64,000 bases of DNA from IMG/VR virus record IMGVR_UViG_3300030329_001671, positions 1-64,000 of that record, one strand, 5' to 3'. Both the position numbers and the translations under genes were made by a program. The stretch is from a virus. Shown here piece after piece: positions 21,254 through 25,742 of this stretch. The notes beneath the pieces were generated by a model. The model had not been told where the DNA came from and ran no database searches. It worked only from the letters and a program-made list of their open reading frames with translations. The first letter of the stretch is position 1; every line of letters starts with the position of its first letter.

Positions 21254-21328
21254 TGCGGGGTAGAGAAGTGGTATCTCATCTGGCTCATTACTAGAAGATC
21301 GTGGGTTCGATTCCCACCCCCGCTACCA
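21254..21328 (+). tRNA. tRNA-Met(CAT), initiator (fMet)-like, atypical anticodon arm
   Basis: Cloverleaf: GCGGGG/CCCCGC acceptor with 1:72 mismatch, GAGA/TCTC D-stem, TCTGG/CTAGA stem, CAT at 21286-88, GTGGG-TTCGATT-CCCAC T-arm, encoded CCA. Confidence 0.9.
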
Positions 21329-22272: not shown

Positions 22273-22425
22273 ATGATTGGAAAACTTAGACCTCAAATCT
22301 TTTTAGCTATTATTGTCTTAGGCGTCCTAGCTTATACGGGAGCAAATAACGGTCTTCCAGAAATTGCTACAGGTACCATTGGGGGCATCATAGCTCTTGG
22401 AATGAAGGTACTGGAGAACGAATAA
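22273..22425 (+). CDS. 50-aa two-helix membrane protein
   Basis: MIGKLRPQIFLAIIVLGVLAYTG...IATGTIGGIIALGMKVLENE; GGAG RBS; below the ORF-track cutoff. Confidence 0.6.
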   Translation: MIGKLRPQIFLAIIVLGVLAYTGANNGLPEIATGTIGGIIALGMKVLENE

Positions 22426-22475
22426 TGCTTTCTGAATGCAAATGTGGCGGAAATTGCCAATGTGGTAAAAAGGGG

Positions 22476-22504
22476 TTGACACACTAAATAAAATAGTGTA
22501 TACT
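22476..22504 (+). promoter_or_regulatory. Near-consensus sigma70 promoter
   Basis: TTGACA-17 nt-TATACT. Confidence 0.85.
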
Positions 22505-22511
22505 AATATGT

Positions 22512-22683
22512 ATTCGCATGATCTACTTTGTACGGTAGATGGTAAGGGCTATTACATAGGTGGGAAGTCGTACACTATCCCACTAATGGTGCAAGTATAG
22601 CTAATGGATATGAACTGTGCATGAGTGAATATCTTGAACAGGCGTAGAGATGGAGCGGGAGTGGGAATCCCCGCCATGCGAAT
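22512..22683 (+). ncRNA. Candidate structured ncRNA of unknown family
   Basis: Directly after the promoter; terminal stem ATTCGCATG/CATGCGAAT with internal stems; T-run downstream. Confidence 0.55.
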
Positions 22684-22735
22684 TATTTAACACCCCCTTA
22701 TTTTTTTATTTGTGATAAGGTATATAATATGTATT

Positions 22736-22875
22736 GGGGGCGCATGGTTTCGACTGGTTCCCTAGCAATCAATCAGAGATGTAATGTCTCAACTGCTAAA
22801 AAGCCCACAGCAAATACGGCAGGGTTGACCGAGTAGGAAGTCAGGACGAGGGTTCGATTCCCTCCGCTTCCACCA
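22736..22875 (+). ncRNA. ssrA: Minimal (140-nt) tmRNA
   Basis: 5' GGGGGCGCATGGTTTCGAC; 3' GGACGAGGGTTCGATTCCCTCCGCTTCCACCA; G3.U70 Ala identity pair; TATAAT at 22723. Confidence 0.85.
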
Positions 22876-22944
22876 AAACATAGAGTGCGTGACCGCCACA
22901 TGAAGACGGCCCTCCACACTCCTTAGTGCGTTTAGGAGAAAACA

Positions 22945-23043
22945 ATGCGTACTATTAGAGAGTTTTTTAGGGTGATTGTTCAAAAACTGGAGTTAGAAGA
23001 GTATTTAGGTCATAGAGACTCTTACATAAAATGGATAAGGTAA
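22945..23043 (+). CDS. 32-aa hypothetical peptide
   Basis: AGGAG RBS; MRTIREFFRVIVQKLELEEYLGHRDSYIKWIR. Confidence 0.45.
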   Translation: MRTIREFFRVIVQKLELEEYLGHRDSYIKWIR

Positions 23044-23047
23044 ACGT

Positions 23048-23635
23048 ATGACGCATAACGAAGCACAGTTGCTAGAACAGTGGGAGCCTAAGGTAAATTC
23101 TATGCTTCGTAGTGTGTCTATCGTAGGACTTGATCGGGAAGATATCGCCCAAGAACTTCGGATTTCAATACTGAAATCTGCTAGAGGGTATAATTCCGAA
23201 AACACTTCAGCTAAATTCCATACGTATTTACACGTATCTATGTTAAACGTAATTAGAAGTTTAATGGCGAAGGCGAAGAAACACGTACCGACTGTTTCTT
23301 TAGATCAACATCTAAGTTCTTCTATGTCTCAATCCGACACTAGAAATATAGGGTCGGTATCTAATAAGTTGCTAACGGCTTTAGAGGATCCTGCCCAGAT
23401 AGAAATTTTCGATGAAGTGGATTTATTGTCTCTGATAGATAAATGTAATCTCACCCCTAAAGAGTTAGATTTTATAGATTTACGAACCCAACGGTATAGG
23501 TTAAGGGAAATTAGTGATATACTAGAGGTTAATGCTGTAAAGCTACGAGAAAGCGTCAAACTTAAACTAGAATGGGGACTTAAATCAGAATGCCAATTAA
23601 CCTTTATGAGTTATCAGAACAATATAAAACTTTAG
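23048..23635 (+). CDS. Sigma70-family RNA polymerase sigma factor
   Basis: Region 2 EDIAQELRI.ILKSA..Y....KFHTYL; region 4 LTPKE...EISDIL. Confidence 0.75.
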   Translation: MTHNEAQLLEQWEPKVNSMLRSVSIVGLDREDIAQELRISILKSARGYNSENTSAKFHTYLHVSMLNVIRSLMAKAKKHVPTVSLDQHLSSSMSQSDTRNIGSVSNKLLTALEDPAQIEIFDEVDLLSLIDKCNLTPKELDFIDLRTQRYRLREISDILEVNAVKLRESVKLKLEWGLKSECQLTFMSYQNNIKL

Positions 23636-24129
23636 TAGATTTTGCCGAAGAAGAAGATGTAGATATTTCGGAAGTCTTATTAGGTATTGCTGAAACACTA
23701 GACCAAAGAATGGAAAGTTTAGTGTTGTCGGTAAAGACTCTAGAGGCGCAATCCGCAGTAGTGGATTCAGAAATCACCCGGCTGAAAGATAAAAAGAAAG
23801 CTATCAATAACCACGTAACTCGAATAAAAGATTACATGAGGCAGTTACTAGAGGCTTCAGGAAGAACTAAAGCCGGGGGTACGCTAGGTTCTGTAAATAT
23901 ACAAAACAGTCCTCTGAGTTTAGTGGTAGATGATGAGAATGTGATTCCATCGGACTTTATGAAAGCCACACTAACCCTCCAACTAAATGAATTACCCGAA
24001 GAACTATCAGGACACCCCACACTAAAATTAGCTGTGGATAAAAAAGCTATTATAGATTTAGCTAGGAACGATGATTTTGAAGTTCAAGGAACTCACGTAG
24101 AAAGGAATCAACACCTAAGGCTACGATGA
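23590..24129 (+). CDS. Siphovirus Gp157-like protein
   Basis: NLYELSEQY, EITRLKDKK...RIKDY, VDKKAI, G...E....LR.R. Confidence 0.8.
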   Translation: MPINLYELSEQYKTLVDFAEEEDVDISEVLLGIAETLDQRMESLVLSVKTLEAQSAVVDSEITRLKDKKKAINNHVTRIKDYMRQLLEASGRTKAGGTLGSVNIQNSPLSLVVDDENVIPSDFMKATLTLQLNELPEELSGHPTLKLAVDKKAIIDLARNDDFEVQGTHVERNQHLRLR

Positions 24130-25742
24130 TTCGGATAGACTACAAAGCCCCATTCTTTATTTTAGACTTTCCTTATAATAAGGGAGACTTGAAACTTGTC
24201 CAAAATTTACCAGTTCGTGAATGGAACAAATCAACCAAAGAGTGGAGAGTTCCTAGGTTAGCTAGTAAATCCTTAGAGCAATTAGGTCCCCCACGGACAG
24301 TACCCGCTACTTGGACAGATGCAGCTCAGGCAGCCAAACAAAAAGTCGAAGACACGATACTAAAATTAGTGGATTTGAAGTTTCAAGAAGGGGAGTCTGG
24401 CGGATTACTTCGCCCGTATCAAACTGTTGGAGTTGAGTTTCTAACGTTTGCTAAAAAAGGATTATTAGCGGATGATATGGGGTTAGGTAAATCCATTCAA
24501 GCTATTAAAGCTTCTATGGATGTATCTGCCGATAAAGTATTAGTATTATGTCCTGCGTCGTTAAAGTGGAAATGGGCTGACGAGTTTAAAAAACATTTCA
24601 ATATTGATGCTTTTGTGGTCGCAGGAAAAAAGGAAGAACGTAGAGCAGTTTGGAAATCTAAAGCTAAGTATATTATAGCTAACTATGACCTACTCCACCC
24701 TAATAGGGATTGGGACGATATGCCCCACAAATGGGATGTTATTATTGCCGATGAAGCGGTGTACCTAAAAAATCCCAAGGCCATAAGAACTAAACGAGCT
24801 CTAAAGTTAGAGGCAGAATATAAGTTCGCCTTATCGGGAATATACATAGAAAACAGCCTAACGGAGTTCTTTTCTATTATGAAATTTATCCGCCCTGAGG
24901 TTGTCCCCGATAACGTTTACACATTTACTAAACGCTATTGTGAAGTCGATTGGAACGGTAAAGTTTTAGGAGCGAAAAAAGAAAAATTACCAGAGCTCCA
25001 CGCCCTGACTTCTCCATTTGTGTTGCGTAGAACTAAGCTAGAAAAGCTGAAGGAGTTACCTCCAAAAATCTATACGCCTATTCCACTGGAGATGTCGGCG
25101 GAAGAAAAATCTGAATACTCAAAACTATCCTCAGAATTTAAAGCATGGGTTGAGGGTGGGAGTAAAGAAGAACATAAAACTGTGGGATCCGCTACGCTAG
25201 ATGTCAGATATTTCGTTGAAGGTATGTATGGTAATTTAGCTACTAAAACTAAAAGACAATGGCTAGAAGAGTTATATAAAACTGTAGATAAGTTAGTCGT
25301 ATTCACATTCTTTGAAAAAAGTGCCAGAATGTTGAAAGAGTATTTTGATACTCCTTATTACATATCTGGAAAAGAAAAGAACAATAGGTTTGAAGTAGTT
25401 AGGGATTTCAACAAAATTAAAAAGGGAATTCTCATATCTACCGATGCTGGAAAATTCGGCTTAGATATGGTGGGTGCGGATACATTAGTTCACTACGGAT
25501 ATGTCCATAACCCCGGTACGATGATTCAGCGTGAAGATAGATTATGGCGTATGGGTCAGGAAAAAACAGTTAACATTCTATTACCGTATTTAATCGGTAC
25601 AATAGATGAAGGAATACAGAAAGTTTACAATACTAGGTTGGCAGAATCTAATAATTTTATGGAAGGCGCAGAGCAAATGCAAGAAGTAAAATTATCGGTA
25701 CAAGATTATGCAAAATTAGTTGATGGAAATTATTATGAGTAG
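24126..25742 (+). CDS. SNF2-family helicase with N-terminal HARP-like domain
   Basis: LRPYQ, LADDMGLGKS, IADEA, LSG, QREDRLWRMGQ. Confidence 0.85.
   Translation: MIRIDYKAPFFILDFPYNKGDLKLVQNLPVREWNKSTKEWRVPRLASKSLEQLGPPRTVPATWTDAAQAAKQKVEDTILKLVDLKFQEGESGGLLRPYQTVGVEFLTFAKKGLLADDMGLGKSIQAIKASMDVSADKVLVLCPASLKWKWADEFKKHFNIDAFVVAGKKEERRAVWKSKAKYIIANYDLLHPNRDWDDMPHKWDVIIADEAVYLKNPKAIRTKRALKLEAEYKFALSGIYIENSLTEFFSIMKFIRPEVVPDNVYTFTKRYCEVDWNGKVLGAKKEKLPELHALTSPFVLRRTKLEKLKELPPKIYTPIPLEMSAEEKSEYSKLSSEFKAWVEGGSKEEHKTVGSATLDVRYFVEGMYGNLATKTKRQWLEELYKTVDKLVVFTFFEKSARMLKEYFDTPYYISGKEKNNRFEVVRDFNKIKKGILISTDAGKFGLDMVGADTLVHYGYVHNPGTMIQREDRLWRMGQEKTVNILLPYLIGTIDEGIQKVYNTRLAESNNFMEGAEQMQEVKLSVQDYAKLVDGNYYE

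Follow-up and report, generated by a model that had tools for sequence, protein, structure and literature searches.

A reduced tmRNA gene of 140 nucleotides, conserved in uncultured marine phages

Introduction

What use has a phage for a tmRNA gene from which most of the interior has gone? The question is raised by a 140-nt stretch (22736-22875, + strand) in the DNA of an uncultured marine phage. The DNA analysed here, called the window throughout, is the first 64 kb (64,000 nt) of IMG/VR record IMGVR_UViG_3300030329_001671, an 88,486-bp genome that CheckV rates as complete. A first-pass annotation of the window had read the 140 nt as a mini-tmRNA endowed with a putative tag that does not condemn the tagged protein to degradation, and had offered a decoy for SmpB and alanyl-tRNA synthetase (AlaRS) as the alternative. 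Comparison of sequences, set out below, marks the mini-tmRNA as a real and conserved stand-alone phage gene specifying a reduced tmRNA. What it does is a separate matter, for which five explanations are weighed where the evidence bears on them. Ranked by probability, competition with the host's own tmRNA comes first, followed in order by a working minimal tmRNA, a rescuer of ribosomes that adds no tag, a scaffold and a relic.

The gene and its tRNA-like domain

The Rfam tmRNA model RF00023 matches 22736-22875 (+) from end to end (model positions 1-374) with a score of 64.9 bits (E 5e-23), to be set against a gathering score of 47 bits, and bears out the identification of the whole interval as a mini-tmRNA; five distinct homologs of 138-140 nt, described in the next section, stand beside this match. 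Within it, 54 nt stand in for 288 internal positions of the model. It is the sole tmRNA match in the 88,486-bp virus record, and a permissive Rfam scan of 22300-23100 turned up nothing else above noise. ARAGORN calls no tmRNA at 22736-22875; it reports only a tRNA-Met at 21254. The check by Infernal and ARAGORN that the first-pass annotation had proposed has therefore come out divided, with the Rfam match above the cut-off and ARAGORN silent.

[quoted passage not shown] The 5' strand of the acceptor stem (22736-22742) pairs with 22865-22871, and this first helix is 100% paired in the alignment, with two of its seven pairs changed on both strands. G3.U70 (22738/22869) is invariant in five of five homologs, as are the discriminator A and CCA (22872-22875). 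The D-loop analogue, GGUUUCGAC (22743-22753), differs among lineages at its first two positions and is invariant in its UGGUUUCGA core (alignment columns 10-18); RF00023 aligns this core to the tmRNA consensus with a posterior probability near 1. The T arm, GAGGG / UUCGAUU / CCCUC (22848-22864), has compensatory changes in two of the five pairs of its stem (helix 6), and its loop is invariant with a single exception, a purine-to-purine substitution of A for G in the contig L005.

Relatives and lineages

Related viral contigs, retrieved by way of the flanking helicase gene (24126-25742), carry the mini-tmRNA at the same place. L005, whose helicase is 99% identical to that of the window, has a 140-nt copy, and L003 and L004, with helicases 85% identical, have a 138-nt copy; all of these score above the Rfam cut-off. 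Additional copies came from stricter DNA patterns that include GGAC before the T arm and from one metagenome scan. (The first exact DNA pattern had found zero relatives because the T stem differs among them; a loose pattern, TTCGAC-N80-110-T arm-CCACCA, was discarded, its matches, at least 119 in number, being nearly all tandem tRNA genes.) There are five distinct versions, 138-140 nt long, from about ten independent marine virome or metagenome contigs, and they form three lineages: A (the window and L005), B (L003 and L141) and C (L130/L142). Lineages A and B are 71% identical over the mini-tmRNA gene. The concern voiced in the first-pass annotation, that homologs might prove to be full length and expose a local deletion or an assembly error, has been disposed of: every relative found measures 138-140 nt, and copies of that size in about ten contigs of three lineages rule out both accidents.

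The lineage C copy (L130 11474-11613, - strand) recurs with identical sequence in L140 and L142. It is a mosaic: its first 100 nt are nearly the same as those of the window's gene and its last 40 nt, which hold the 3' strand of helix P2 (see below), a T stem with compensatory changes and acceptor-stem position 69, are different. Its surroundings are unrelated (an HNH endonuclease, a methyltransferase and small ORFs), with a hairpin upstream and no promoter. Lineage C looks like the outcome of horizontal transfer accompanied by recombination within the gene. The presence of a mini-tmRNA in a phage of different gene context implies that it behaves like a transferable accessory gene.

Such recombination could also be taken as the mark of a dead relic, either an attP site or integration scar or else a decaying, functionless fragment of a captured host ssrA. 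The 3' ends of ssrA genes are frequent sites of phage integration (PMC9004378), and it is the 3' 40 nt of the lineage C gene that differ. Yet the TLD has kept its two halves, which co-vary, the length is constant across lineages that are only 71% identical, the gene has its own promoter and the complete genome encodes no tyrosine integrase. The lack of an integrase and the co-variation of the two gene halves lead us to reject the attP/integration scar specifically, and to regard the relic explanation in general as highly improbable.

Searches of reference collections found no cultured relative. The mini-tmRNA region has no blastn match among 50,697 phage records and the mini-tmRNA itself has none in E. 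coli genomes; tblastn against reference collections gave only matches below 30% identity for the flanking helicase and no matches for the flanking sigma factor, whose relatives form a graded series from 78% down to ~36% identity. The 3' end, GGACNNGGGTTCGATTCCCNNCNCTTCCACCA, has at least 120 matches in 185,579 species genomes (in Clostridia, Campylobacterota, Fusobacteria, Scalindua, Gammaproteobacteria and others), and none of these resembles the mini-tmRNA outside the TLD. Among public sequencing runs, only four marine ones were found with 5% of the sampled words; all four consist of contigs, three are merely guessed to be RNA, and the mini-tmRNA gene as such is covered by none of the four.

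Fold and covariation

A fold of six helices (acceptor stem, P2, P2b, hairpin A, helix B and T arm; 39 pairs) was tested on alignment A2, which has five sequences and affords only two or three independent comparisons. Standard pairs occupy 96.9% of its cells, as against 43-54% when pairing partners are slid by 1-3 columns, and 13 of the 39 pairs are changed on both strands in compensatory fashion, with at least one such pair in every helix, as against 0-1 in the slid controls. Covariation, which the first-pass annotation had recommended examining, accordingly upholds all six helices in these five sequences. The single-sequence folding energy of the mini-tmRNA is unremarkable (z = -0.64), so that it is covariation, not energy, that supports the fold.

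P2, the counterpart of tmRNA helix 2a, pairs 22754-22764 with 22834-22844; four of its 11 pairs are compensatory and it is 89% paired, with one or two internal mismatches per lineage. P2b pairs 22769-22774 with 22823-22828 (six pairs, three of them compensatory, 100% paired). Hairpin A (22776-22790), a 5-bp stem with a 5-nt loop, is the small GAGAU/GUCUC hairpin already remarked on at the site of pseudoknot 1, and it does occupy the spot at which pseudoknot 1 begins in normal tmRNA; its stem (helix 4) has undergone an A-U to C-G double change and its loop drifts freely, even between the two lineage B sequences. Helix B (22793-22797 with 22818-22822), which has one G-C to A-U double change, closes a 20-nt loop. 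Infernal's alignment of lineage B places P2b on tmRNA helix 2d and the beginning of hairpin A on the first strand of pseudoknot 1; the body of the RNA can therefore be read as helix 2, a remnant of pseudoknot 1 and a loop, leading back into helix 2.

Helix 2 is thus represented by P2 and P2b, and the rest of the interior is made up of two simple hairpins, with pseudoknots 1-4 and helix 5 absent; the first impression that no room was left for pseudoknots 2-4 agrees with the contraction of the model's interior noted above. Inspection of A2 by eye for a loop-loop pseudoknot found no complementary co-varying segments. What this RNA has kept is the set of tRNA-Ala-like recognition features, helix 2, a hairpin at the pseudoknot 1 site and a conserved loop; what it has lost is helix 5, pseudoknots 2-4 and a recognisable tag template.

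The open frame

An open frame of 13 codons and a UAG does exist at 22795-22836, as first described. It reads AKKPTANTAGLTE before the stop, and the caveat attached to it was apt, the UAG lying inside the 3' strand of P2. If this frame were used, the RNA would be a working minimal tmRNA: translation would resume at GCU 22795 or, in the same frame, at GCA 22810 and end at the UAG in helix 2, freeing the ribosome and adding (A)AKKPTANTAGLTE or (A)ANTAGLTE, peptides that do not end in Ala-Ala. Several observations speak for it. All lineages have the frame open, with the stop at the same alignment position (a UAG in lineages A and C, a UAA in B). The sequence before 22795, CAACU or, in lineage B, UAACU, agrees with the natural resume signal in a relaxed form, and natural tmRNAs offer parallels such as AACAACU|GCU and |GCUAAAAAG; GCA AAU lies in an invariant loop. 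According to the literature, pseudoknot 1 is reducible to a hairpin, natural tags of two residues exist and a ribosome can be recycled once no more than the resume codon has been translated (PMC4236655, PMC11915505). An unrelated phage RNA of 133 nt (58.3 bits) in the contig L128 has a textbook AUAAAU|GCA followed by a frame of 10 codons, AFKTTTGRLN and a stop, whose end lies directly ahead of the 3' strand of helix 2; as a candidate for a natural minimal tmRNA that tags, L128 is preferable to the window's gene.

The frame itself, however, is no better than expected by chance: when the interior is shuffled with its dinucleotides preserved, 77% of the shuffles have a frame of 8 or more codons that starts with GCN and stops ahead of the T arm. 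Nor has the peptide been conserved. In lineage B the frame reads TTMPTANTVGMFK and a stop, with 5 of 13 residues kept and 8 changed, and the entire C-terminus is replaced (LTE in A, MFK in B). The codon differences between A and B arise from compensatory substitutions in helix B, P2b and P2, so that the two peptides differ because of RNA pairing; there is no sign in them of peptide conservation. The examination of frame conservation among relatives that the first-pass annotation had suggested has, in other words, lent its tag no support.

All of 105 natural tmRNAs annotated with ARAGORN, our reference set, have a G-initial resume codon and almost all have N-U-A-R-N-Y before it, a pattern that agrees with the literature on A86 and U85 (PMC2481249, PMC4236655). 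The first candidate has the acceptable context CAACU|GCU in lineages A and C and reads UAACU|ACU in lineage B, where it departs from the rule of G at the first position; moreover, the codon sits in helix B, where a change on the opposite strand compensates for the replacement of its G by A. The second candidate, GCA at 22810, lacks the near-invariant A at position -4. Neither candidate resume codon fits the natural pattern in both lineages. Of the 8 reduced tmRNAs scanned, 6 show the relaxed pattern (5 of 6 unrelated types), roughly what chance would give. Base pairing involves nine of the 14 codons in whole or in part, counting the stop, helix 2 closes a ring of only 69 nt, and no experiment has shown tmRNA function without the arc from helix 5 to pseudoknot 4. 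ARAGORN's failure to make a call points the same way. Because the frame is at chance level, its peptide unconserved, neither resume codon in keeping with the natural pattern in both lineages and most of its codons at least partly paired, we do not count it as evidence, and the claim of a non-degradation tag is not sustained.

It is unlikely, by our estimate, that the RNA works as a minimal tmRNA, although that explanation stands second in the ranking; we would, correspondingly, be surprised to find in it the smallest natural complete tmRNA, 140 nt long, devoid of helix 5 and pseudoknots, with a frame of 8-13 codons encoding a peptide that is not a ClpXP-type degron. Were that so, the pseudoknot ring would be dispensable in nature, and phages would have separated the rescue of ribosomes from the destruction of proteins.

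The invariant loop

A 13-mer of the body, ACAGCAAAUACGG (22807-22819), is invariant in the alignment and located mostly in the loop of helix B. The GCA AAU that it contains resembles a natural tag start of the commonest kind among natural tmRNAs. Comparison of lineages A and B shows changes at 0 of the 11 unpaired positions in the 13-mer and at 9 of the 26 other unpaired positions of the body (p = 0.025), which argues that something reads that loop. The 13-mer is found once in the window, and its complement, with up to two mismatches allowed, is found nowhere else in the window.

These properties are what would be expected if the RNA were a scaffold. The TLD would then be a handle for stability, processing or delivery, and loop and body would bind a protein or RNA of host or phage: S1, RNase R or a defence nuclease directed at tRNA or tmRNA, for which the RNA would be a decoy, are examples of such partners. 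The significantly greater conservation of 22807-22817 relative to other unpaired positions favours this idea, as does the maintenance of stems whose hairpin loops drift. No partner has come to light, however, the search for a complement in the window was fruitless, and the elements of alanine identity are strictly kept, for which a mere handle has no need. We consider a scaffold improbable and place it fourth.

Promoter and flanking DNA

A TATAAT box can be read at 22723-22728, 7 nt upstream of G1, the first nucleotide of the gene. Lineage B has a perfect TTGACA-17-TATAAT promoter that ends 6 nt before G1, a spacing that would let transcription begin at the 5' end of the mature RNA. In the window, a 216-nt insertion (~22498-22713, defined relative to the sibling L005) parts the TATAAT from its -35 box, and the displaced -35 box now belongs to a TTGACA-17-TATACT promoter (22476-22504) for a structured RNA of the insertion. 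That RNA, ~190 nt long, folds into a closed three-way junction (z = -1.7), matches no Rfam family and begins with a repeat of the mini-tmRNA leader (TAATATGTATT). At 22425-22487 (+) lies a Cys-rich frame of 20 codons, MLSECKCGGNCQCGKKGLTH, known from its sequence only, that is present in lineage A and absent in B; it overlaps the stop of the preceding gene for a small membrane protein and extends into the -35 box.

A search 3' of the mini-tmRNA found no intrinsic terminator, so that transcription may continue into a small ORF and a gene of the sigma-70 family. This side of the gene is occupied by a conserved block that starts with GAGUGCGUGACCGCCAC (22883-22920, extending to 22960). Lineages A and B differ in it by only one A/G position and a 2-nt indel, as against 71% identity over the gene itself. 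Contigs from four marine 'RNA-Seq' runs (three studies) contain sequence ~95% like 22883-22960. In three of these runs the block is preceded by the 3' end of a different, permuted-type tmRNA (…GAGTTCGACTCTCCCCGCCTCCACCA-GTTC), and in the fourth by a garbled variant; in IMG/VR this alternative 3' end was found only in ordinary two-piece phage tmRNAs, all of them without the 3' block. Since differing tmRNA 3' ends adjoin one and the same block, this locus seems to be a place of exchange between tmRNA genes of more than one kind.

Function

The neighbours of the mini-tmRNA are a tRNA-Met, a GroES-like co-chaperonin and an Hsp20 protein, followed by the sigma factor, Gam and helicases. The complete 88-kb genome encodes no SmpB, no RF-1/ArfB domain and no peptidyl-tRNA hydrolase. 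The lack of a phage SmpB implies that the RNA must act through the SmpB, AlaRS and EF-Tu of its host.

The experimental precedent for such action comes from E. coli, in which a TLD-only tmRNA strongly inhibited tmRNA (Mao et al. 2009, as related in PMC4131195 and PMC11915505). In these accounts that construct is the one case given of a TLD-only form inhibiting a resident tmRNA, and it underlies the suggestion, made there, that the TLD-only gene of phage DS6A titrates SmpB. The SmpB/AlaRS decoy put forward as an alternative in the first-pass annotation would fit this sole precedent. The explanation that we favour, tentatively and with a confidence somewhat short of even, is that host SmpB and AlaRS are bound by the RNA, which acts as a competitor or modulator of trans-translation in the host; put more broadly, the mini-tmRNA probably acts by disturbing or short-cutting rescue and tagging in the host, and not by supplying a defined tag. 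The mini-tmRNA would be synthesized early from a host-type promoter and be bound by host SmpB, and it would probably be charged by AlaRS and carried by EF-Tu. It would then compete with the full-length tmRNA of the host for SmpB and stalled ribosomes, and the normal outcome of trans-translation, the degradation tag and the recruitment of RNase R, would be blunted or bypassed during infection. Transcription, charging, SmpB binding and the competitive effect are what we infer for this RNA.

Much of what has been described is consistent with competition: a match to the full tmRNA model with the TLD consensus intact, the invariance of G3.U70, A73 and CCA, six helices maintained by compensation, a length held at 138-140 nt in three lineages and about ten assemblies, the perfect sigma-70 promoter of lineage B, a genome lacking SmpB, ArfB/RF-1 and peptidyl-tRNA hydrolase, a tag frame with neither coding signal nor conserved peptide, and the recurrence of the gene in the different context of lineage C. 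DS6A and the inhibition in E. coli, as those accounts relate them, serve as precedents. The main weakness is one of economy. About 80 nt are enough for a plain decoy, as in DS6A and in the ~82-nt forms of L137, L266, L271 and L273 that are described below, and pure competition leaves unexplained both the 69-nt body and the invariant loop with its likeness to a tag start. In addition, GroES-like and Hsp20 neighbours hint at support of protein quality control, not at its sabotage.

Those same proteostasis genes could be enlisted for an explanation of opposite sense, in which the RNA, like the tmRNAs of jakobid mitochondria, is a rescuer that adds no tag. It would donate its alanine, and host ArfB, or drop-off combined with peptidyl-tRNA hydrolase, would free the ribosome, so that ribosomes would be kept available for the phage and rescue would not be inhibited. 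Alanine identity and the TLD are intact, as this requires, and the jakobid mitochondrial tmRNAs, which have no mRNA part, are thought to be limited to freeing ribosomes (PMC3590771). Set against this, the TLD-only molecule in E. coli is reported, in the account given in PMC4131195, to have inhibited tmRNA function and not to have rescued; the phage has no release factor or hydrolase of its own; and the conserved body goes unexplained here too. We think it a doubtful proposition, third in order, and return to competition with the host tmRNA as the preferred reading.

Comparison with other tmRNAs

With the standard one-piece SsrA RNA (RF00023) the mini-tmRNA shares the acceptor stem with its G3.U70, the discriminator A, CCA, the T arm with its GGUUCGAnUCC loop, the D-loop analogue, helix 2 and the 5'-to-3' order of these parts. 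Unlike it, the mini-tmRNA has no pseudoknots 1-4, no helix 5, no frame that carries the natural resume signal in every lineage and no Ala-Ala C-terminus, and its ~140 nt compare with the 374 positions of the Rfam model for SsrA; about three-quarters of a normal tmRNA is missing from it. Engineered E. coli tmRNAs in which a hairpin replaces pseudoknot 1, and others with very short frames down to two-residue tags, still recycle ribosomes (PMC4236655), and the architecture of the mini-tmRNA is similar; those variants differ from it in keeping helix 5, pseudoknots 2-4 and the natural signal that sets the frame.

Full-length tmRNAs of phages (those of the mycobacteriophage Bxz1 group and the two-piece ssrA of the marine phage Melnitz, PMC9004378) likewise stand behind an early-type promoter, and the Melnitz ssrA, like the mini-tmRNA, lies directly upstream of a gene for a transcription factor. 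In contrast to the mini-tmRNA, they have complete tag templates and are detected by ARAGORN. In the marine phage contigs L290, L292, L295 and L301 we observed two-piece permuted tmRNAs of the Melnitz-like type, which are promoter-driven and laid out as TTGACA…TATAAT, acceptor piece, long hairpin spacer and 5' piece. The jakobid mitochondrial tmRNAs (Jacob et al. 2004; PMC3590771) resemble the mini-tmRNA in being reduced, in having kept alanine identity and in having lost the mRNA-like region, and their function is presumed to be confined to the tRNA-like step; they are mostly in two pieces (permuted), organellar and served by a nucleus-encoded SmpB, whereas the mini-tmRNA is viral, in one piece and has a structured body.

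The closest counterpart is the TLD-only or 'CDS-less' tmRNA of DS6A (tmRNA Website tmID 11587), characterized as 'little more than the TLD' (PMC4131195, PMC11915505). We located its gene at JN698994 28478-28560, where it scores 43.2 bits, below the Rfam cut-off, over 83 nt, and where the GenBank record has no feature. The two RNAs have in common that they are phage-encoded, with a non-permuted alanine-type TLD, no recognisable tag template and no phage SmpB, and that routine annotation missed them. They differ in size and score (83 nt and 43.2 bits for DS6A against 140 nt and 64.9 bits) and in that the mini-tmRNA has helix 2a, an equivalent of helix 2d, a hairpin at the pseudoknot 1 site and a conserved 20-nt loop. 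Their phages differ as well: DS6A is a temperate actinophage with an integrase, and the phage of the mini-tmRNA is marine and without one. Measured against the CDS-less class as a whole (DS6A, Mallomonadaceae plastids and jakobid mitochondria), the mini-tmRNA has the alanine-type TLD of the class and exceeds its size (~65-85 nt), being 140 nt long with a conserved 69-nt body; as to the absence of a tag frame, no frame with a coding signal was found in it, yet it retains an open frame and an invariant motif that looks like a tag start.

Pattern scans of IMG/VR show that reduced forms are not confined to these two. TLD-only forms of ~82 nt occur in L137 (about 805-887), L273 (2991-3072), L266 and L271, and several of them share a small hairpin of the GCCCGAAnGGG type. 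Unrelated intermediates of 117-133 nt occur in L272 (2413-2529, -), L050 (1727-1851), L134 (10684-10809), L131 (9520-9646) and L128 (1305-1437, -); the four checked, those of L272, L050, L131 and L128, score 54-72 bits and are each the sole tmRNA match of their record. ARAGORN called none of four such phage intermediates of 117-127 nt. Because it misses genes of this kind, and because the DS6A record is equally silent, interference of phages with ribosome rescue has probably been under-counted.

Reduced phage tmRNA genes are represented in print by essentially one example, DS6A, and one inhibition experiment. To these the mini-tmRNA family adds an intermediate design (TLD, helix 2, hairpin and a loop resembling a tag start) that is under selection in several marine lineages and moves between unrelated phages. 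It raises the questions of whether phages use such RNAs to switch off or redirect host trans-translation, and of what minimum of tmRNA is needed for SmpB-dependent entry into the ribosome, for frame setting and for release. Among the reduced forms found, the mini-tmRNA family is the largest and most structured, a structured relative of the TLD-only tmRNA of DS6A.
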